A DNA stretch of 64,000 bases from an archaeon (GCA_018657525.1 JABHWZ010000002.1:84590-148589), one strand, 5' to 3'; numbered from the stretch's first letter, positions 34,917 to 49,673 are shown. A program made the numbers and translations. The notes: a model not told the origin generated them from the sequence alone.

Positions 34917-35222
34917 TTATCCAAATAGAGCACCTAGCCCTTCTGCTGCAGCTTCTTTCTTTTCTTCTTTTGGCTTCTCAGCTTTTGCTTCTCCACCTTC
35001 AGCTCCACCCGCAGGTGCGCTTCCAGCAGCAGGAGCACTAGCAACTAAACTAGCACTTGCTAATTCAGCTTCGATATCCACGTCCTTCAAACTAGCAACA
35101 AGAGACTTGATTTTACTCTCGTCCACGTCGATGCCAGCGGCTGCAACAACACTTTTGATTCCTTCTTCATTAACTTCCTTTCCTGCCTTATGCAGTAAAA
35201 GTGCTGCGTATACGTTTTCCAT
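34917..35222 (-). CDS. rpl12: 50S ribosomal stalk protein P1 (archaeal L12)
   Basis: MENVYAALLLHKAGKEVNEEGIK..., an Ala/Gly hinge, and the C-terminal EKKEAAAEGLGALFG. Confidence 0.9.
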   Translation of the reverse strand: MENVYAALLLHKAGKEVNEEGIKSVVAAAGIDVDESKIKSLVASLKDVDIEAELASASLVASAPAAGSAPAGGAEGGEAKAEKPKEEKKEAAAEGLGALFG

Positions 35223-35237
35223 TTTATTGTTTTCCTC
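35219..35237. repeat. 19-nt perfect direct repeat (CCATTTTATTGTTTTCCTC on the plus strand) spanning the stop/start junction, copy 1
   Basis: Identical to 35430-35448. On the coding strand it reads GAGGAAAACAATAAAATGG, i.e. -GKQ stop, A, ATG G. Confidence 0.9.
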
Positions 35238-35433
35238 TCCCAGAATTTAGTTCTGTTTGAGTTGAATATCTATTACAAATTTGATAATCATTTGGACAAC
35301 TCATTGCCCAGAATCGATCTATTTCACTTGCGCAGGGACTACCATCATATAAAAACGGACACATCTTTCCTTCTTCTTTCAAATTTTCAAGTCTTTGAGT
35401 AATTTCTTCTGACATTATTAAATTTTCTGCCAT
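35224..35433 (-). CDS. hypothetical Cys-rich protein (69 aa) intercalated upstream of rpl12
   Basis: There are 1-nt gaps on both sides when started at the ATG at 35433. Contains a CPF...C...C...C pattern and is flanked by the 19-nt perfect repeat. Confidence 0.6.
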   Translation of the reverse strand: MAENLIMSEEITQRLENLKEEGKMCPFLYDGSPCASEIDRFWAMSCPNDYQICNRYSTQTELNSGRGKQ

Positions 35434-35448
35434 TTTATTGTTTTCCTC
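35430..35448. repeat. 19-nt perfect direct repeat, copy 2
   Basis: See 35219-35237. Confidence 0.9.
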
Positions 35449-35764
35449 CATTTAAATTTGGAGTTTGAACTTGGTAAGCTCTTACCCAAAATTTATTTGA
35501 AAAGTCAACTTCATCCATTCCTTCTGAAATAAGTACTCCTGCTAATAAACCTTCTACAATTCCTTGTCCGTCCGGAGCACATCTTCTCCCTATTTTATTC
35601 CAAGAATTATCTGGATCTCTCCTAACATCACGAAACCGGATGTTTTTACAACCCTGTGAATGATATACCTCTATTTTTACCATTAGAGTCTCTCCAGTAG
35701 ATGGTGCAGGATATTGATAAATTTCATCCAACATCCCTTGTGGGATAGAATCTCTTTCTGTCAT
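35435..35764 (-). CDS. hypothetical protein (109 aa) intercalated downstream of rpl10
   Basis: The ATG at 35764 lies 1 nt after the rpl10 stop; the track start at 35857 overlaps rpl10. Confidence 0.6.
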   Translation of the reverse strand: MTERDSIPQGMLDEIYQYPAPSTGETLMVKIEVYHSQGCKNIRFRDVRRDPDNSWNKIGRRCAPDGQGIVEGLLAGVLISEGMDEVDFSNKFWVRAYQVQTPNLNGGKQ

Positions 35765-35765
35765 T

Positions 35766-36722
35766 TTATCCAAACAGTGCACCAAGACCTTCAGCTGCTG
35801 CTTCTTTCTTGGGCTCCTCCTTTTTTTCTGGTTTTGATTCTTCTGCTGGTGCTTCAACTGCCACTGGCTCTGGTTCCCCAGTCATTATTCTATGAACTTT
35901 AGTTCCATGTGCATTTGCTTTTGCTAACAAGTGAGAAATTGTATCTTTTGAGACATATCCCATAGAAACTGCAAAAGACAATGCCTTCCCATAATCTGCC
36001 TTCAAATTTTCAAGAGCCCCTTCAATATCAATTTTAATTTCTGCATAAAATTTATTCTCTTTAGTATCAAGCGCACTCAAAGGTAAGAACCCAATTGAAA
36101 ACGGTTTAATATCTAACTTACTCATCATCGCCGCTGCCCCCGAAGAAATCTCTTCGCCTTCTTTAACTAAAACTTTATCTTCCTTAATTGCAATTTTCCC
36201 ATCTTTAATCTGAATCTGAATTCCCAAAGCACCCAATTCTGAAATTGCTGGACCTGGAACTAAATCTGTTGGACCTGCTGAAACAATAATGTCCAACGGA
36301 GCAATTTGTCCAACTTTTGCTTTTGCAGGACTTTTGTTTCTTAATAAATCCAGAGATAAATCAAATGCATCACTTTCTGAAAATAATATTGCAACAGCTT
36401 CGCCAATCGAACCCTTTAATTTTTCTCCTTCTTTTGTTTCCGCTTCATCGATCGCTCTAAGAATTAAATTTTTCTTTGGAACTTTTACAACTGCTTGTCC
36501 TCGAAGTTTCTTAACAATTTCTTGAAATTGTGAGCCAGGCAAATTCTTAATTGAAGCAATTAAAACTGTTTTACTCCCACTAACTAAATCCTTTAACTCT
36601 GTAACAGTTTCCAATTTCCACTTTGGTGGATCAGTTCTTGCCGAGCGTTTTTGCGAACCTTTCGCGTCGCCCTTGATGTGAGCGGGAGCGCGAGTTTGAG
36701 CTGGTTTTTTTATTTCTGCCAT
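35766..36722 (-). CDS. rpl10: 50S ribosomal stalk protein uL10 (P0)
   Basis: PKWKLETVTELKDLV...VLIASIKNLPGSQFQEI and the C-terminal KKEAAAEGLGALFG. Confidence 0.9.
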   Translation of the reverse strand: MAEIKKPAQTRAPAHIKGDAKGSQKRSARTDPPKWKLETVTELKDLVSGSKTVLIASIKNLPGSQFQEIVKKLRGQAVVKVPKKNLILRAIDEAETKEGEKLKGSIGEAVAILFSESDAFDLSLDLLRNKSPAKAKVGQIAPLDIIVSAGPTDLVPGPAISELGALGIQIQIKDGKIAIKEDKVLVKEGEEISSGAAAMMSKLDIKPFSIGFLPLSALDTKENKFYAEIKIDIEGALENLKADYGKALSFAVSMGYVSKDTISHLLAKANAHGTKVHRIMTGEPEPVAVEAPAEESKPEKKEEPKKEAAAEGLGALFG

Positions 36723-36723
36723 T

Positions 36724-36972
36724 TTATTCTATCACCTTCCTTTTTAATTTTCCGTTAATTATTTCATATGTTCTGGAAAATTCTTCCTCTGTCCCATAAT
36801 TAGTATAAACTCGACTTCCTTCCTCTCCCCAAATAAAAACATAGTTCTCTTCTATTGATCCAGATAAATTATGAACTATTTGTTTCGCCTCTCTTCCATT
36901 TAAAACTTCTAAAAGTCCTTTTCGTCCATCATCAACTTCTCTTCCAATCCATTGTTTCCAATTATTTTCCAT
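36724..36972 (-). CDS. hypothetical protein (82 aa) intercalated between rpl1 and rpl10
   Basis: There are 1-nt gaps on both sides. Its last codons encode GGAAGGTGAT, the SD for rpl10. Confidence 0.6.
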   Translation of the reverse strand: MENNWKQWIGREVDDGRKGLLEVLNGREAKQIVHNLSGSIEENYVFIWGEEGSRVYTNYGTEEEFSRTYEIINGKLKRKVIE

Positions 36973-36973
36973 T

Positions 36974-37606
36974 TTATCTTATCGAAATTTTCTGCGGTTT
37001 AGTCATTGTGAATTTAACTTCAACATTCTTTACATTTTCTTTTTCTCGCGGTAAATGTTTCAGAACAGTTTTGTAAATTGTATTAATATTCTCAATTATG
37101 TCTTCATCTTTCATACTCTGTTTCCCAATCGCAAGTTTAATACTAGCCTCTTTAACTTTAATTTTTATACTATTACTAATTTTTGCTTTCACTTCATTTA
37201 TTGCTTTATCATCTGCATTTAGAATTATTCCTAACTGGGGAGAAGGCATTTTTCCTGCTGGTCCTAACGCTCTACCAAAGGTTGTTGCAATTTTTGGCAT
37301 TAAACTTCCTTGCGCAAGAAAAAAATCATAACTCTCTACTAATTTTTTTAATTTCTTCTTATCATTATATTTCTTAAATTGCTCTGGAGTAATCGTATCC
37401 ACATTTTTATTGTCTGATTCTAAGAAACCTGCAATTTTTTTCTCTTTTACTTGATGCGGAACATTCACAATAACATTAAGTGTTGTTTTTTTCAAATCAA
37501 CTTTTTGCAAATTTATAATTAAATCAACTGTTTGGTCAAACTTCCGTTCCTTCCCTTTACGTAACTCTTCCAGAGCTTTTTTTAAATCGGTTTTCAAATC
37601 TGCCAT
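36974..37606 (-). CDS. rpl1: 50S ribosomal protein uL1
   Basis: RKFDQTVDLIINLQKVDLKK...LGPAGKMPSPQLG is uL1. Confidence 0.9.
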   Translation of the reverse strand: MADLKTDLKKALEELRKGKERKFDQTVDLIINLQKVDLKKTTLNVIVNVPHQVKEKKIAGFLESDNKNVDTITPEQFKKYNDKKKLKKLVESYDFFLAQGSLMPKIATTFGRALGPAGKMPSPQLGIILNADDKAINEVKAKISNSIKIKVKEASIKLAIGKQSMKDEDIIENINTIYKTVLKHLPREKENVKNVEVKFTMTKPQKISIR

Positions 37607-42162: not shown

Positions 42163-42531
42163 CTAATCAAAAAAGGATTCATATTCACGTATAGCCCAAA
42201 ATGTATCTTCTGCTGGAATACCTTTTTCAGTAGCATTTTCTATTGTTTTTAGACCATTCGAGACAGCAATAAATTTTGCTTCCCCTCTTTCAACTCTTTC
42301 CTTTACTTGAGGTAAATTCCAAATAGTTTCAGAAGGTGTAACATCTGGGCTTCCACTATGCCCAAAATTAGCATCCATTAAATATCTATCATAATCTTTT
42401 GCTTGAGCCTGGGCTTCCATTTCCTCAAAAGTATCTATTACCTTAACATAATAACCTCGAATCTCAGCTAATGCTTCCACATTCTCTTTAAGAACATAAT
42501 CATGCAATCCTATTAAAGCTGTTTTTGTCAT
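42163..42531 (-). CDS. hypothetical protein (122 aa)
   Basis: ORF with a possible flavodoxin/CheY-like alpha/beta pattern. Not callable. Confidence 0.5.
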   Translation of the reverse strand: MTKTALIGLHDYVLKENVEALAEIRGYYVKVIDTFEEMEAQAQAKDYDRYLMDANFGHSGSPDVTPSETIWNLPQVKERVERGEAKFIAVSNGLKTIENATEKGIPAEDTFWAIREYESFFD

Positions 42532-43572: not shown

Positions 43573-43974
43573 TTAATCTGATTTTATTTGTTCAAGTAAT
43601 GAACTTAAAACCTTTCTATAAACTTCTGCTTCATAAACCTCAACAGGTAAAATGCGCGATGACCTAAGAACAAATGGCTTGGAATAATCCTTCCCTCCGG
43701 CAATCTTGAAAGCATCCCCCAGGGAGTGGGTAGTATGGAAAATTAATTGACTAGCAATTGAATTGGAATTTGGGCTATCAAAATTTTTGTATTCTACTTT
43801 TACTTCCAAATTTCTTGGAAGATTAATGGAACAGCTATGAAAACATGAATTTTCAAATAACATTTGAGATAGTTCCCTACTAAAATCTTCTAAAGTCTGT
43901 GCGTCTTGAGGAGATCGACCTGGAAAAAAGTCAGGCATAATTTTCCCATATTCTAAACTTAAAATTTTACCCAT
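43573..43974 (-). CDS. hypothetical protein (133 aa)
   Basis: ORF with no motif. Confidence 0.5.
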   Translation of the reverse strand: MGKILSLEYGKIMPDFFPGRSPQDAQTLEDFSRELSQMLFENSCFHSCSINLPRNLEVKVEYKNFDSPNSNSIASQLIFHTTHSLGDAFKIAGGKDYSKPFVLRSSRILPVEVYEAEVYRKVLSSLLEQIKSD

Positions 43975-44890: not shown

Positions 44891-46030
44891 ATGGATAGTT
44901 TTAATCAAGAGGGGGGAGAGCAAAATTCTACACAATCTGTCCCTCGCGAAGAAATGCCTTCACGCGGAGTTTCTAATGAAGTTCGAGAAATAGATAGAGA
45001 ACTCGAAGAATTATTAAAACAACAAACTGCAAAAATTAAAGTAATTGGAATCGGAGGCGGAGGAAATAATTCTTTGTCTCGAATGAAAGAAATAGGAATC
45101 AAAGGTGGAGAATTAATTGCAATAAACACCGACGCGCAAGATTTACTTTACGCCCAGGCAGACCAAAAAATTCTAATTGGAAAAGAATTAACTCAAGGAC
45201 TTGGTGCAGGAAGCAATCCCAAAATAGGTGAGGAATCAGCAAAAGAATCTGAATCAGAAATCAAGAAAAAAATTGCAGGTGCAGATATGATTTTCATAAC
45301 TTGTGGTTTGGGTGGAGGAACAGGTACCGGAGCCGCTCCTGAAGTCGCAAGAATCGCAAAAAAGCAAGGTGCTTTAACAATTGGCGTCGTTACACAACCA
45401 TTTGCCATCGAGGGTAAAAAAAGATTGGAAAATGCAACAGAAGGTTTAGAAAAAATGGAGTCAATGGTAGACACTTTAATAGTCATCCCCAACGACAGAC
45501 TTTTAGATTTAGCCCCAGAATTGCCACTTCACACCGCCTTCAAAATCTCAGACGAAATTTTAACCAACGCAGTTAAAGGAGTTACAGAGTTAGTAACAAC
45601 TTCTGGACTAGTAAACTTAGACTTCGCAGATATCAAAGCAGTAATGTCAAACGGAGGAGTTTCTTTAATCGGAATGGGAGAATCAGACACCGAAAACAGA
45701 GCAATTGACGCAATCCAAAAAGCAATAGAAAATCCACTTTTAGATGTCGATATAAATAACGCTGGAGGCGCTTTAGTAAATATTGTTGGAGGACCAGACA
45801 TGAGTTTAGATGAGTGCAAATCAATAATTGAGTTAATCGGCAATAAACTTAGCCCCGACGCAAAACTAATCTGGGGGTCACAAATTTCTGCTGACATGGA
45901 AAAATCAATAAGAGTAATGATAATTATAACCGGTGTCAAAAGTAATCAAATAATCGGACACGGAAAAACAATCGACCAATTAAAACACGACGAAATCGAG
46001 GACGAACTCGGGATTGAATTTTTTGAATAA
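44891..46030 (+). CDS. ftsZ: cell division GTPase FtsZ
   Basis: IGIGGGGNN, tubulin signature GLGGGTGTGAAPEVA, NTDAQ. Confidence 0.95.
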   Translation: MDSFNQEGGEQNSTQSVPREEMPSRGVSNEVREIDRELEELLKQQTAKIKVIGIGGGGNNSLSRMKEIGIKGGELIAINTDAQDLLYAQADQKILIGKELTQGLGAGSNPKIGEESAKESESEIKKKIAGADMIFITCGLGGGTGTGAAPEVARIAKKQGALTIGVVTQPFAIEGKKRLENATEGLEKMESMVDTLIVIPNDRLLDLAPELPLHTAFKISDEILTNAVKGVTELVTTSGLVNLDFADIKAVMSNGGVSLIGMGESDTENRAIDAIQKAIENPLLDVDINNAGGALVNIVGGPDMSLDECKSIIELIGNKLSPDAKLIWGSQISADMEKSIRVMIIITGVKSNQIIGHGKTIDQLKHDEIEDELGIEFFE

Positions 46031-46031
46031 A

Positions 46032-46427
46032 ATGAAAAGTTTAAGGCAGCAAATGGAATCAAATGGATATGAAATAAGAATTTTAACTAAAGGTAACTTT
46101 GCAGATTTTTTAGCATCATCTGCAGTTGCGTTGGCAAAAGCTAATTATTTAGATCTTCAAATTTTTGATTCTAAAAGAGCATTTGAGGGAGAGGATAGAA
46201 TCTTAGTTGAGAGACAGAGGGTTGCATTTATTTATCCTTCTAAGGCATATGATGATTGTAGATTTAACACTCCAAATAAAGGGTTTCCGATGGGACAACA
46301 ATACTATAATCTTTCTTGGAAAGATGCTACAACTGGGGAAGTAGATGATCTGATGCCCTTTCAATCTGATTTTATAGGTCCCTTGAGAGTCAGAAAGGAA
46401 AAAGACTATAATTGGAATAAAGATTAA
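46032..46427 (+). CDS. hypothetical protein (131 aa) tightly coupled to ftsZ
   Basis: The ATG at 46032 lies 1 nt after the ftsZ stop; the track start at 46014 overlaps ftsZ. Confidence 0.55.
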   Translation: MKSLRQQMESNGYEIRILTKGNFADFLASSAVALAKANYLDLQIFDSKRAFEGEDRILVERQRVAFIYPSKAYDDCRFNTPNKGFPMGQQYYNLSWKDATTGEVDDLMPFQSDFIGPLRVRKEKDYNWNKD

Positions 46428-46430
46428 ACC

Positions 46431-46448
46431 ACAACAATTATTAAAAAC
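46431..46448 (+). promoter_or_regulatory. promoter cassette ACAACAATTATTAAAAAC
   Basis: Copy 1 of a repeated CAACAATT-N-TTAAAAAC(C) motif. Its TATA part lies about 21-28 nt upstream of the ATG at 46469. Confidence 0.45.
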
Positions 46449-46468
46449 TACTTTTCTTATTAAATAAA

Positions 46469-46738
46469 ATGGATAAACAATATCGCGACAGAGACCCTCA
46501 ATTAGTTCGTCTCTCTAAGCTAAGAATGTATTGCGGAATTTCTTTTCATAATTTAAAAGCAAAATGTCTTGGAACTGAAGACAATTCTTGCGGTCCTGAA
46601 AATTGTCCTTTGGCTAGAAAAGCAACTTCAGATGATTTAAGAGAACATAAACCCGAACCAATCTCCGAAGATGAACTTGAAACAGGCAATCCTTATCAAG
46701 TTTGGATGGTTCAAACAAGAGAAGTAATTAGGAAGTAA
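46469..46738 (+). CDS. hypothetical protein (89 aa)
   Basis: ORF with its own promoter cassette. Confidence 0.5.
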   Translation: MDKQYRDRDPQLVRLSKLRMYCGISFHNLKAKCLGTEDNSCGPENCPLARKATSDDLREHKPEPISEDELETGNPYQVWMVQTREVIRK

Positions 46739-46755
46739 AATTTAGACAAGGCCCC

Positions 46756-46804
46756 ACAACAATTTTAAAAACCTTTCAGCAGACTACAACAATTCTTAAA
46801 AACC
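46756..46804 (+). promoter_or_regulatory. two tandem promoter cassettes (ACAACAATTTTAAAAACC and ACAACAATTCTTAAAAACC)
   Basis: The copies are 30 nt apart. The second is 21-28 nt upstream of the ATG at 46824. Confidence 0.45.
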
Positions 46805-46823
46805 ATTTTCCTTTTTGAATAAA

Positions 46824-47105
46824 ATGAGCGAAGAATCCCCTTCAGAAGGAAGACAATATTCTAAGGACCAAGTACAACAAATTAGGAACATTGATAGTCA
46901 ACAGAGAGATTTAACTGAAGGATTAAAGAAAAATAAAAACCCTCCTCTTCCAGAAGTTTATTCTCAGGTTTTAATATTGAGAGAAAAAATGGATGAGTAT
47001 CTTGAATTTTATGGAGAAAGAATTATTCCAGAGCAGGAAATAGGTAAAACTCTCTTAACTTTTCTAGGATCCAAACAGGGGGATCTTGATGATATTCCGT
47101 TCTAA
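46824..47105 (+). CDS. hypothetical protein (93 aa)
   Basis: First ATG at 46824; the track start at 46815 is TTG. Confidence 0.5.
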   Translation: MSEESPSEGRQYSKDQVQQIRNIDSQQRDLTEGLKKNKNPPLPEVYSQVLILREKMDEYLEFYGERIIPEQEIGKTLLTFLGSKQGDLDDIPF

Positions 47106-47137
47106 TCAATATCAACTTAAAACACCTTAATGTAATC

Positions 47138-47154
47138 CAACAATTTTAAAAACC
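47138..47154 (+). promoter_or_regulatory. promoter cassette CAACAATTTTAAAAACC upstream of secE
   Basis: The same motif, 19-28 nt upstream of the secE ATG at 47173. Confidence 0.45.
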
Positions 47155-47172
47155 CTTTATCTCTATTTATTT

Positions 47173-47346
47173 ATGGTAACTCAAAAACTAAAATCATTTT
47201 TCGTTCAATGCAAACGAGTTTGGACTGCATTAAAAAAACCATCCAAAAAAGAATTTAATCAAACCGCAAAAGTTGCAGCAATCGGAATTTTAATCTTGGG
47301 CGCTTTAGGGTTTTTAATCTCAATTGCAATGAAAATTTTTGTATAA
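47173..47346 (+). CDS. secE: preprotein translocase subunit SecE / Sec61gamma (57 aa, MVTQKLKSFFVQCKRVWTALKKPSKKEFNQTAKVAAIGILILGALGFLISIAMKIFV)
   Basis: Hand-translated and not in the track. An amphipathic basic N-terminus plus a single C-terminal TM helix. The position upstream of spt5-rpl11 is the conserved archaeal context. Confidence 0.7.
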   Translation: MVTQKLKSFFVQCKRVWTALKKPSKKEFNQTAKVAAIGILILGALGFLISIAMKIFV

Positions 47347-47362
47347 AAAGATTTAAAAGGTT

Positions 47363-47869
47363 ATGACCATTAATCATTTTATGACGTTGATAAAAGGTTA
47401 TTTAAAATTTCTAAAATATTTTGTTCCAATAGTTATCGGATTGTTTTTGATATTTATTCTTTTTGTTTCATTTATTGCTAAGCAATTTCCCGATGGATTC
47501 GCGATGATGGGTTTATTATTATTAATTGGAGGATTAGGGGTAATTTTATTTCTTGTGGGGGTAATTTTAGCTTTAATTGATTATTTTTTTGGAAAAGGCG
47601 AAGAGGAAATCAAAACAATTGAAAGTAATCCTCAAAATAAACCAAAAACAATTCTCTCTGTTCCAAATGAATCAAAAAAATTTCCTCTTCCCCTTCTGGG
47701 AGGTTTAATAGGAATTTTATTTGGTCTTTTAACAAGTTTAACTTATCTTGGAAAGGATTACGCAGATTTTGGATATATTGCTTTAAATGTTGGGGCAGCA
47801 ACTTTTTTTGCCTATCTCCCTTTAGGAGTTTTTATTGGATGGCTAATTGCTAAATTCAAAAAAGATTAA
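47363..47869 (+). CDS. hypothetical membrane protein (168 aa, about 4 TM) inserted between secE and spt5
   Basis: Hydrophobic helices; starts 16 nt after the secE stop. Confidence 0.55.
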   Translation: MTINHFMTLIKGYLKFLKYFVPIVIGLFLIFILFVSFIAKQFPDGFAMMGLLLLIGGLGVILFLVGVILALIDYFFGKGEEEIKTIESNPQNKPKTILSVPNESKKFPLPLLGGLIGILFGLLTSLTYLGKDYADFGYIALNVGAATFFAYLPLGVFIGWLIAKFKKD

Positions 47870-47946
47870 TCATAAAAAGATTTAAATACCCCTAATTTTA
47901 ATTAATTATATCTACTTCTTTGAAGTTAAGAAGTAGTGGACACAAA

Positions 47947-48399
47947 ATGATTTTCATTATAAAAGTAACAACAAACAAAGAAGAACGATCCGTCGACATG
48001 ATTGCTGAGAAAGCTCAGAAAAAAAATCTAAATGTTTTTTCAGTTTCAAGACCTTTCGGACTTCGAGGATACATCTTACTAGAAGCTGAGGACAGAGATT
48101 CTGCAGAAGAATCAGTTTTTAATTTACCTTATGTAAAGGGAATAATTGGGAAAACAATTCCTTATGAAGAAATTCAAAACATGGTTGAACCATCAGCGAC
48201 GACAATTTCAATTCAAGAAGGTGACATCGTTGAAATTATTGGAGCAACTCTAAAAGGCGAAAAAGCCAAAGTTACAAGAATCGACAAACAAAAAGAAGAA
48301 GTCGTTGTAAATTTATTAGGAGCAGTAGTTCCATTACCAGTCTCAATTAAATTGGATAGCGTAAAGGTTATAAGGCGTGAATCTGAGGAAGAAGAGTAA
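47947..48399 (+). CDS. spt5: transcription elongation factor Spt5 (archaeal NusG)
   Basis: NGN domain (IFIIKVTTNKEERSV...GYILLEAEDRD) plus a KOW motif (EGDIVEIIGATLKGEKAKVTRID). ATG at 47947. Confidence 0.85.
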   Translation: MIFIIKVTTNKEERSVDMIAEKAQKKNLNVFSVSRPFGLRGYILLEAEDRDSAEESVFNLPYVKGIIGKTIPYEEIQNMVEPSATTISIQEGDIVEIIGATLKGEKAKVTRIDKQKEEVVVNLLGAVVPLPVSIKLDSVKVIRRESEEEE

Positions 48400-48833
48400 T
48401 GGAAATAAAAGATTTATTAGAATTAGGGAGGGGAAAAATTAGAGACTTTAAAAGCAAAGTTATGCCTAAAGGATATTTTGAAGAATCTGTTAGGGTTTGT
48501 TTAAATTTAAAAGGAAAAGACCCCGCTTCAGATAAATTTGCAGAAGCATTCGAAGAATTTTGGTTATTCAATATTAGACAAGCTACCTATCAAGAAACGC
48601 TTCATGATAGAATGAAAGCAATTGTTGAATCTAGTAGGAATGTCGAGGGGGGGAAAGATCTCGTTGAGTATCTTGGACGAACCTCTTTAGAGTTTAGAGC
48701 AAGGTCAGACGCAATCACCCAAGTAAGAACTAATTATAGACTTTGGAGAGAAGGTCAACAAGATTATTCTGTTTTTGAAGATTCTTTAAGAGGAGCATTA
48801 ACTTTAAATAAACAAATCGGAGTAACTCAATAA
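48399..48833 (+). CDS. hypothetical protein (144 aa) intercalated between spt5 and rpl11
   Basis: TAATG overlaps at both ends. Its first 4 codons (MEIK) and 14 nt are identical to the rpl11 start. Confidence 0.65.
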   Translation: MEIKDLLELGRGKIRDFKSKVMPKGYFEESVRVCLNLKGKDPASDKFAEAFEEFWLFNIRQATYQETLHDRMKAIVESSRNVEGGKDLVEYLGRTSLEFRARSDAITQVRTNYRLWREGQQDYSVFEDSLRGALTLNKQIGVTQ

Positions 48834-49531
48834 TGGAAATAAAATTATTAGTTGAAGGTGGAGCAATGAAACCCGGACCAGCAATCAGTCAACAGCTTGG
48901 GCCAGCCGGAATCAATATGGGCAAAGTCATTTCTGATGTTAACGACGCTACTTCAGGTTTCAAAGGATTAAAAGTTCCAGTAACTTTAGAAGTTGATACA
49001 AAATTAAAAACATTTGAAATTAAAGTATTCTCCCCACCAGTTTCAGAATTATTAAAAAAACAATTAGGATTAGAAAAAGGCGCCGGAGAACAGAAAAAAA
49101 TTCAGGCAGGAAACGCCTCTATTGAAGATATAATTTCTGTTGCAAAAACAAAATTACCCAATTTATTATGTAAGGACTTGAAAGCTGCAGTTAAAACAAT
49201 TGCAGGAACTTGCGTTAGTTTAGGATTATTAATTGAAAATCAACCAGCTGTTAAAATTGCAAGCGAAGTAGAGGCAGGAAAATATGATAATGAAATTCAA
49301 GAACAAAAAACAGAAACAGATGCAGAAAAAAGAAAACAATTAGATTCATACTTTAAGGATTTACATTCAGCTCAAGAAAAGCAGAAGAAAGAAGAAGAAG
49401 AAGCTGCTGCTGAAGCTGAAAAGGAAGCAGCTGCTGCCGCTGAACCAAAAGAAGGAGAAGCAGCTCCAACAGCACCAACAGCAGAAGGCGAGGCTCCAGC
49501 ACCACCCGCAGCAACAGAGGAAAAGAAATAA
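48833..49531 (+). CDS. rpl11: 50S ribosomal protein uL11 with a Glu/Ala/Pro-rich C-terminal tail of about 70 aa
   Basis: The core KLLVEGGAMKPGPAISQQLGPAGINMGKV... is uL11. The tail is KKEEEEAAAEAEKEAAAAAEPKEGEAAPTAPTAEGEAPAPPAATEEKK. Confidence 0.9.
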   Translation: MEIKLLVEGGAMKPGPAISQQLGPAGINMGKVISDVNDATSGFKGLKVPVTLEVDTKLKTFEIKVFSPPVSELLKKQLGLEKGAGEQKKIQAGNASIEDIISVAKTKLPNLLCKDLKAAVKTIAGTCVSLGLLIENQPAVKIASEVEAGKYDNEIQEQKTETDAEKRKQLDSYFKDLHSAQEKQKKEEEEAAAEAEKEAAAAAEPKEGEAAPTAPTAEGEAPAPPAATEEKK

Positions 49532-49557
49532 AAACCCTCTGTAATTATAAAAATCAT

Positions 49558-49630
49558 GGGGCGGTAGTATAGCCTGGTAGTATTTCAGGTTTGGGACCTG
49601 ACGACCGCGGTTCAAATCCGCGCCGTCCCA
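49558..49630 (+). tRNA. tRNA-Pro (anticodon UGG); no encoded CCA
   Basis: Hand-folded. Acceptor GGGGCGG/CCGTCCC (one G-U pair), D loop AGCCTGGTA, anticodon stem TCAGG/CCTGA with loop TTTGGGA, T arm CGCGG-TTCAAAT-CCGCG, discriminator A. Confidence 0.85.
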
Positions 49631-49673
49631 TTCGGTGTTATAAACACCGTGGGTTTGAATTAAGTAAAATAAA

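Follow-up and report, generated by a model that had tools for sequence, protein, structure and literature searches.

An apparently intact secE-spt5-rpl11 module in a DPANN archaeon, with accessory small genes at its boundaries that may ride on copied essential-gene signals

The canonical archaeal gene order is (ftsZ-)secE-nusG/spt5-rpl11-rpl1-rpl10-rpl12. We analyzed the secE-spt5-rpl11 locus (positions 47173-49531) in a 64,000-nt stretch of archaeal DNA (GCA_018657525.1 JABHWZ010000002.1:84590-148589; hereinafter, the window, i.e., the whole stretch) that belongs to a tiny-celled DPANN archaeon of the Pace-/Woesearchaeota-like group. SecE, Spt5 and L11 are encoded in order, on one strand and with their normal domains, but they are not direct neighbors: an open reading frame (ORF) for a 168-aa protein (ORF168) splits secE from spt5, one for a 144-aa protein (ORF144) splits spt5 from rpl11, and downstream of rpl11 come tRNA-Pro and rpl37ae, not rpl1-rpl10-rpl12. 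On balance, we consider it somewhat probable that the module itself is intact and that the accessory ORFs ride on duplicated or copied expression signals of the essential genes, with the gene boundaries acting as permissive cassette slots in this group of archaea. The original prediction, made from the sequence alone, had described an interrupted module. The ORF list and the raw sequence bear out the secE-spt5-rpl11 string and both extra ORFs, Pfam confirms the three conserved genes, and the interruption and the double coupling of ORF144 to its neighbors are real, but ORF144 is not a fixed new component of the module.

ORF144 is joined to each neighbor by TAATG (48397-48401 and 48831-48835), in which one A is common to the stop and the start codon; the proposed coupling to the spt5 stop and the rpl11 start is thus read directly in the raw sequence. 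Translation of ORF144 most likely proceeds by termination-reinitiation, i.e., ribosomes ending spt5 would restart at the overlapping TAATG on ORF144, and those ending ORF144 would restart likewise on rpl11; internal leaderless transcripts could be an alternative to reinitiation. ORF144 is probably made at roughly the level of Spt5 and L11 in this uncultured episymbiont lineage. A phmmer search of 1.84 billion representative proteins retrieved eight at E <= 1e-3, namely, one chance match to a repeat protein and seven full-length proteins (144-172 aa), so that ORF144 has six further full-length homologs of 146-172 aa, in six other lineages, at 21-49% identity. A word-indexed search of 5.8 billion clusters returned only one 99% twin, and a protein of identical sequence has been predicted in at least 54 blocks of public assemblies (the NCBI entry is hypothetical protein MBT3404765.1, locus tag HN832_02465, assembly GCA_018653175.1). 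Seven columns are invariant in the alignment of the seven sequences (M1, D16, S44, F47, W55, R110 and Y113), and helix 4 ends in a conserved aromatic-basic motif, R-x-x-Y-Y-x-W-R-R-G-E. With this alignment, AlphaFold yields an all-alpha model, a five-helix bundle around a long helical hairpin, with a predicted local distance difference test score (pLDDT) of 80.5 and a predicted template modeling score of 0.70, compared with a pLDDT of 68.5 for the single sequence. Neither the single sequence nor the family alignment matched Pfam, NCBIfam, PADLOC or PDB sequences (PDB E >= 0.17), and the best PHROG match is marginal (E 0.0017 over 26 residues). Foldseek found no match to the fold at E <= 1e-3, the best being generic helical bundles (PDB 0.28, BFVD 0.089). 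The structure and homology searches thus delineate a tiny family without a curated counterpart or a known fold, and, judging by these sequences, ORF144 is a real gene and the founder of a very small, fast-evolving new protein family.

Two candidate kinships of ORF144 were rejected. Descent from L11 or Spt5 by tandem duplication of the junction fails in profile comparison (hhalign probability 1% for L11 and 0.05% for Spt5), and the resemblance between the ORF144 and rpl11 starts is confined to the first 6-7 codons. The second candidate was the WHEP-TRS domain of eukaryotic aminoacyl-tRNA synthetases (PF00458): residues 12-44 of ORF144 are 48% identical to one repeat of P0008, a WHEP-TRS repeat protein and the chance match mentioned above, and the predicted N-terminus is likewise a helix-turn-helix of similar size. 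PF00458, however, matches no family member, even as N-terminal fragments at E <= 10, and profile comparison gives a probability of 5%; we treat this likeness as a chance resemblance.

All seven family members lie between spt5 and rpl11 (one, on the 680-nt contig L003, shows the spt5 side only); at the junctions, the genes overlap by 11, 4 or 1 nt or are 1 nt apart. For a wider comparison of synteny, we used GTDB species genomes scanned with an alignment of Spt5, which provided at least 29 loci from Candidatus Woese-, Pace- and Nanoarchaeota, including GW2011_AR19 (related loci carry numbers with the prefix L). The backbone FKBP-ftsZ-secE-spt5-L11-L37ae-prefoldin-SepF is common to the window and relatives. 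Among the matches listed, ORF144 is absent from all 28 informative species genomes (hidden Markov model (HMM) search, E <= 10): in 19, spt5 overlaps or abuts rpl11 (gap <= 23 nt), in three, a short non-coding spacer intervenes, and in six, the place is taken by other small ORFs (66-114 aa) unrelated to ORF144 and to one another. HMM searches of ORFs and three-frame translations, as well as blastn, detected no hidden or frameshifted ORF144 in the spt5/rpl11 gaps of the relatives. Accordingly, of the outcomes considered for related genomes in the original prediction, absence holds and degeneration does not, and ORF144 is a positional partner of Spt5 and L11 in a few lineages but not a known conserved partner. 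In L013, which has ORF144, and L016, which has an 89-aa ORF instead, Spt5 is 91% and L11 85% identical, and the DNA is 83% identical through spt5 and 78% through rpl11; the inserts share nothing, and the homology ends exactly at both gene boundaries. The genomes with ORF144 are scattered in a tree of Spt5 plus L11, each beside a genome without it. Given the L013/L016 pair and this scatter, the boundary between spt5 and rpl11 is a place where an insert is present, absent or replaced with precision, and the occurrence of ORF144 in the same slot of a few lineages, together with its absence from the sampled species genomes, identifies it as a patchy accessory cassette. The spt5(nusG)-rpl11 adjacency, which is among the most conserved in prokaryotes, appears here to tolerate a translationally coupled extra gene and, because its occupant varies among close relatives, core information-processing operons can be sites of insertion and turnover.

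We therefore take ORF144 to be a dispensable accessory protein; an obligatory subunit of an Spt5 or L11 complex is less likely given the varied cargo of the slot and the dispensability and fast evolution of ORF144. Where ORF144 homologs are 21-48% identical to the window protein, Spt5 is 71-87% identical, indicating that ORF144 evolves much faster than its neighbors. In a less stringent version of partnership, ORF144 would, in a few lineages, serve Spt5 or L11 (the stalk base or GTPase-associated center) as a dedicated partner or regulator, its amount fixed in proportion to theirs by coupling, and would act on the transcription-translation machinery. We regard this as a doubtful, although serious, possibility: the location of seven out of seven members in the slot with coupled junctions, the conserved fold with its invariant aromatic and basic residues and helix 4 motif, and an N-terminus (MxIKDLL) that mirrors that of L11 (MxIKLLVEGG) within each genome all agree with it. 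Should ORF144 bind Spt5 or the stalk base of the ribosome, it would represent a novel, lineage-specific component of the gene expression apparatus. Conversely, close relatives manage without ORF144 or with unrelated ORFs in its place, ORF144 evolves about three times faster than the supposed partners, the isoelectric points of the family range from 5.6 to 9.4, unlike those of typical ribosomal proteins, no obvious change in L11 or Spt5 tracks ORF144 (a C-terminal tail of L11 is present either way), and the adjacent slots carry functionally unrelated cargo. Alternatively, ORF144 could be a young or de novo ORF with a functionless product, kept for the passage of ribosomes from spt5 to rpl11 that its translation provides; its disruption would then uncouple rpl11. 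Such an origin would be in keeping with the failure to find outside homologs or a matching fold, the very fast divergence, the native composition of ORF144 and the unrelated small ORFs that occupy the same gap in relatives. Nevertheless, it appears unlikely, because ORF144 keeps its length, its helix pattern and seven invariant columns among homologs that are 21-49% identical, because the alignment is needed to bring the model to confidence (pLDDT 68 to 80), which points to selection on the protein, and because relatives from which ORF144 has been precisely lost evidently still have a functional spt5/rpl11 junction.

The second line of evidence for accessory genes riding on essential-gene signals comes from the sequences in front of them (Table 1). 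In 21 of 21 relatives, (A)ATTTTAAAAACCC stands at the same distance upstream of secE and places the TATA box at about -29..-22. Archaeal TATA boxes center about 26 nt upstream of the start of transcription, so this spacing fits a leaderless mRNA. In the window, the secE-type element (CAACAATTnTTAAAAAC) occurs four times within 720 nt, and the sole other match in the 64 kb is weaker; the element stands at identical leaderless spacing before secE and two of the extra ORFs upstream of it, ORF89 and ORF93, which would accordingly be transcribed from copies of the secE promoter at the exact spacing. The copy before ORF93 lies in a 44-nt repeat (D2) that is 84% identical to the one before ORF89. The ORF89 and ORF93 units share this 44-nt 5' end and a 20-nt 3' end, and the ORF93 start region repeats the 16-nt junction at the end of ftsZ, TTTTTGAATAAAATGA (repeat D4). 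The possibility that ORF89 and ORF93 are diverged tandem paralogs was rejected, given that just the ends of the units align and the coding parts score z = 0.7. ORF168 is exactly bracketed by a 15-mer, ATAAAAAGATTTAAA, found at 47343 and, within the spt5 promoter, at 47872. In the upstream copy, the center of the TATA box plus 26 nt is 47381, the ATG at which the NCBI annotation starts ORF168 (M7, 162 aa), so that this copy of the spt5 TATA region may direct leaderless transcription from 47381.

The junctions flanking ORF144, J1 and J2, share more than the 14 nt that are identical between them, namely, equally spaced GAGG or GGAG at -14..-11, a TATA-like box at -30..-23 and the codons for MEIK. 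Across six ORF144 genomes, J1 resembles J2 of its own genome as much as it resembles the orthologous junctions elsewhere, and the same-genome pairing is the maximum of 720 permutations (p = 0.0056). Over the whole window, 111 predicted gene starts have a strong context, TAAAATG(G/A), with T at -4 and A at -3 to -1, for which the very compact stop-A-start junctions are partly responsible; of the eight strongest start-region pairs, four are neighbors within 1.3 kb. The signal copies, we infer, originated in local duplication or recombination; here the promoter duplications carry more weight, and duplication of J1/J2 is suggestive. Because each extra gene carries a copy of a neighbor's signal, these genes would ride on duplicated essential-gene signals in the manner of phage 'morons'. 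On a still broader view, which we advance as a tentative and rather improbable extension, the boundaries of essential, highly expressed genes in these DPANN archaea might act as places of exchange and as nurseries of new small proteins. Short signals (the leaderless promoters of secE and spt5, with the transcription factor B recognition element (BRE) and TATA box, and the rpl11 and rpl12 stop/start junctions) would be duplicated or serve as recombination points, unrelated ORFs would be inserted, swapped and precisely lost at the same nucleotides, inheriting a promoter or a reinitiation site, and ORF144 would be a cassette that gained a stable fold and function and then persisted or spread.

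Several considerations weigh against the favored interpretation. The strict position and the coupling of ORF144 keep a dedicated partnership with Spt5 or L11 in play, since together they are a classic signature of proteins of one complex and make a functional link plausible. Around the ATG, unrelated gene starts in the window have exact runs of 12-18 nt in common; the 14-nt run of J1 and J2 is at the 99.9th percentile of start pairs, but their ungapped identity (17/27) is only above the 95th, so the two junctions may also have become alike by convergence on an optimal start region. The tree of Spt5 plus L11 is a short neighbor-joining tree without support values, and therefore gains and losses of ORF144 are not countable on it; the sample of relatives, at least 29 loci, is incomplete. 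Finally, function and mechanism, including co-transcription, termination-reinitiation and leaderless starts, are deduced from metagenome-assembled genomes.

A foreign source of the extra ORFs was considered as well. These ORFs match the core genes in GC content, GC content at third codon positions and codon usage. No match at E <= 1 was found with PADLOC for ORF144, ORF168 and six other extra ORFs, and a viral origin of ORF144 and ORF168 was ruled against by the absence of relatives of either in IMG/VR. Direct repeats of 14-16 nt flank the extra ORFs, and neither transposase nor integrase nor terminal inverted repeats were found around them, so that they do not qualify as transposable elements. 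Thus, it is very unlikely that the extra ORFs came into the operon as cargo of a mobile element, a virus or a defense island: the repeats flanking the ORF144, ORF168 and ORF89/ORF93 units could be taken for its traces, as could the LAGLIDADG gene and the reverse-transcriptase fragment that L009 has in this backbone, but the repeats are functional signals of the neighboring genes and not foreign ends, the composition is identical to that of core genes, and neither significant PHROG matches nor the other hallmarks just listed were found.

ORF168, the occupant of the slot between secE and spt5, was originally described as a protein with four transmembrane segments; it is real, and we count 4-5 hydrophobic segments, with an internal 2+2 repeat. 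The corresponding direct repeat, D6 (47528-47551 and 47699-47722, 171 nt apart; GGLGVILFLVG and GGLIGILFGLL), suggests that ORF168 may have arisen by duplication of a two-helix membrane unit. Among 5.8 billion clusters, the search retrieved ORF168 itself alone, and no homolog was found in about 60 related loci or in viral contigs (IMG/VR). This lack of any homolog could be held to favor the view that ORF168 and ORF144 are chance ORFs or annotation artifacts. This, however, is extremely unlikely: ORF144 has divergent homologs in the same slot, long chance ORFs are rare at 32% GC, and ORF168 combines clean hydrophobic segments, the internal repeat and a correctly spaced promoter copy with a single, synonymous change between two strains. 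The second strain is represented by L001, a 2-kb contig from another sample that differs from the window at 4 positions in 1.94 kb from 47244 onward, so few that the ratio of nonsynonymous to synonymous substitution rates has no power. Positions 1-133 of L001 are unrelated to 47111-47243 of the window, i.e., the secE promoter and the first 24 codons are replaced, which reflects either a strain-level rearrangement at the secE boundary or an assembly chimera.

The slot itself varies widely, measuring 69-148 nt in nine relatives, 281-388 nt in two (one with a 97-aa ORF) and 0.9-3.2 kb in nine. Its occupants are often genes for lipoprotein-like products of 560-780 aa or for a membrane protein with nine segments. 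In L015, L018, L023, L025, L032 and L035, the 560-780-aa protein has a signal-peptide-like N-terminus and a lipobox-like cysteine (...LLLGCQKDE, ...IVGCDKDE); these proteins, whose genes adjoin that for the translocon, are likely to be variable surface lipoproteins. ORF168, by its sequence, is a membrane ORFan restricted to this organism.

Table 1. Genes, junctions and signals of the locus and its surroundings in the window
Feature	Coordinates	Strand	Remarks
rpl1-rpl10-rpl12 operon	34917-37606	-	interrupted
rpl12	34917-35222	-	
ORFb	35224-35433	-	69 aa, 5 Cys; between rpl10 and rpl12; ends GRGKQ
ORFa	35435-35764	-	109 aa; between rpl10 and rpl12; ends GGKQ
rpl10	35766-36722	-	
ORF82	36724-36972	-	between rpl1 and rpl10
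rpl1	36974-37606	-	
ftsZ	44891-46030	+	identified by translation; upstream anchor of the conserved backbone
ORF131	46032-46427	+	joined to ftsZ stop by TAA-A-ATG; ORFan
Predicted secE-type BRE/TATA copy before ORF89	46432-46448	+	CAACAATTATTAAAAAC; TATA center ~26 nt before ATG
ORF89	46469-46738	+	extra ORF, probably leaderless; ORFan
Predicted secE-type promoter copy, 'empty'	46757-46773	+	no ORF at the right distance
Predicted secE-type BRE/TATA copy before ORF93	46787-46803	+	same spacing to ORF93 ATG (46824)
ORF93	46824-47105	+	extra ORF, probably leaderless; ORFan
Predicted secE leaderless promoter	47138-47154	+	CAACAATTTTAAAAACC; TATA box -29..-22 from secE ATG
secE	47173-47346	+	PF00584, E 2.4e-7
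15-nt copy of spt5 BRE/TATA region	47343-47357	+	ATAAAAAGATTTAAA (repeat D16), across secE stop
ORF168	47363-47869	+	168 aa, membrane ORFan in the secE|spt5 slot
Predicted spt5 promoter	47872-47888	+	AAAGATTTAAATA; counterpart of the AAAnTTTATAAACCC element of relatives
spt5 leader 5'-end hairpin	47912-47936	+	CTACTTCTT tgaagtt AAGAAGTAG; -9.6 kcal/mol, z = -3.1
spt5	47947-48399	+	NGN plus KOW domains (PF03439 + PF00467)
Junction J1, spt5 stop / ORF144 start	48397-48410	+	TAATGGAAATAAAA
ORF144 ('X')	48399-48833	+	five-helix protein (model), new small family
Junction J2, ORF144 stop / rpl11 start	48831-48844	+	TAATGGAAATAAAA, identical to J1
rpl11	48833-49531	+	L11 N- and C-terminal domains (PF03946 + PF00298); NF002232 L11, E 1.3e-51
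tRNA-Pro(TGG)	49557-49631	+	in the rpl11|rpl37ae slot

The other gene boundaries of the backbone are variable too. In relatives, the distance between ftsZ and secE ranges from 29 to 2339 nt (one case with a reverse-transcriptase fragment), that between rpl11 and rpl37ae from 31 to 2467 nt (one with TrmB and LAGLIDADG genes), and that between rpl10 and rpl12 from -56 to 1307 nt. In L009, L010 and L011, from a relative with ORF144, two unknown ORFs and an RVT_1 fragment separate ftsZ from secE, and a TrmB-family gene and a LAGLIDADG gene separate rpl11 from rpl37ae. Of the extra ORFs in the window, ORF131 showed no match in Pfam, NCBIfam, PHROG or PADLOC and no homolog in about 60 related loci; likewise, ORF89, ORF93, ORF82, ORFa and ORFb have no Pfam or PADLOC match and no homolog in related loci. 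Compared to L006, which has the same backbone with ORF144 included (wyosine radical-SAM, M50 peptidase, eIF5A, FKBP, ftsZ, secE, spt5, ORF144, rpl11, rpl37ae, prefoldin, SepF), the window contains approximately 8 additional ORFan ORFs within 12 kb, among them those at 42163-42531 (-), 43573-43974 (-) and 46032-47105 (+). The window genome thus seems unusually rich in ORFan insertions.

As originally noted, rpl11 is separated by about 11 kb from rpl1-rpl10-rpl12, which lie on the opposite strand; the coordinates give approximately 11.2 kb upstream of rpl11. This separation is common to the relatives sampled, and the window genome is no exception among them: in none of the 22 related loci that contain L10 is L11 next to L1, and rpl37ae follows rpl11 within 2.5 kb in the 28 related loci that yielded the two genes. 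In the interrupted operon of the window, ORF82, ORFa and ORFb are each joined by TAA-A-ATG, and 17 nt (GGAAAACAATAAAATGG) are common to the junctions that precede ORFb and rpl12. In most relatives, rpl10 abuts rpl12; four have 213-1307 nt in between. The window L11 is extended at its C-terminus by about 80 aa (49283-49531, residues ~151-232), and the NCBIfam 'L11/unknown domain fusion' model gives a weak match. All 32 relatives aligned (L11 genes in L004-L042) have such an extension, 50-100 aa long, with or without ORF144; it opens with the conserved, helical-looking YDxEI..KTETS.EKKK.LD.YF..VK..Q.K..KQE.AAKEA and continues into a low-complexity tail rich in A, E, K, P and T that ends in KK. 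The tail is similar to the hinge of acidic stalk proteins, without their GLGALFG end.

The spt5 ORF opens with TTG at 47920, but alignment with relatives places the real start at the ATG at 47947 (MIFIIKV). The hairpin at the predicted 5' end of the spt5 leader recurs at the same place in 18 of the 26 leaders of relatives folded individually (L009, L013-L016, L019, L020, L022-L025, L028, L031, L032, L034, L035, L039 and L040), starting about 22 nt after the TATA box, with energies of -9 to -11 kcal/mol and z of about -3. The stem sequences differ while the pairing is kept (CUACUUCUU/AAGAAGUAG, UCUAAGA/UCUUAGA, CUGCUUCUUAG/UAAGGAGUUAG), and a GGAGC motif comes after the hairpin; in L017 and L029, an extra, relatively GC-rich segment of about 60 nt (GGAGCTCGAGCGAyTTCrynnn...GGGAGATAGG) lies between the hairpin and the spt5 ATG. 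Rfam recognized the tRNA alone, with no match for the hairpin, and RNAalifold found no consensus structure in a MAFFT alignment of the spt5 leaders because the hairpins sit in shifted registers. The hairpin could be a regulatory or mRNA-stabilizing element.

Compared to the canonical archaeal string, the window retains secE, spt5 and rpl11 in order on one strand with ftsZ upstream, and differs in the two extra genes inside and three more between ftsZ and secE, in the tRNA-Pro and rpl37ae genes after rpl11, and in the position of rpl1-rpl10-rpl12, which stand apart and are themselves interrupted. A literature search retrieved nothing on a secE-spt5-rpl11 locus with extra genes. In phages, 'morons' are additional genes that have been inserted among conserved ones and bring expression signals of their own. 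The present ORFs resemble them in lying between conserved neighbors, in being absent from close relatives and in forming a variable cargo at fixed positions, and ORF168, ORF89 and ORF93 each have, by sequence and spacing, a promoter-like element of their own. The context, in contrast, is a cellular archaeal chromosome with core cellular genes instead of a phage or prophage, the signals are copied from the promoter or start region of a neighbor, and ORF144 lacks a clear promoter of its own, being coupled by overlapping stop and start codons. The arrangement is therefore an instance of known phenomena (ORFans, moron-like insertions and promoter recruitment) newly seen in a highly conserved adjacency.

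In prokaryotes, ORFans and proto-genes have been described as emerging by promoter recruitment (PMC11101190, PMC12315717, PMC13012023, PMC11293555), and the genes described here share with them lineage restriction, native composition, promoter acquisition and the lack of detectable homologs. The copies of neighboring signals would add a concrete route to ORFan expression, which bears on the debate on ORFan origins (PMC12315717, PMC13012023). The differences from such ORFans and proto-genes are that the recruited signals are recognizable duplicates of the signals of adjacent essential genes, that the ORFs are located inside information-processing operons, and that ORF144 has already spread or persisted over several lineages with its fold conserved.

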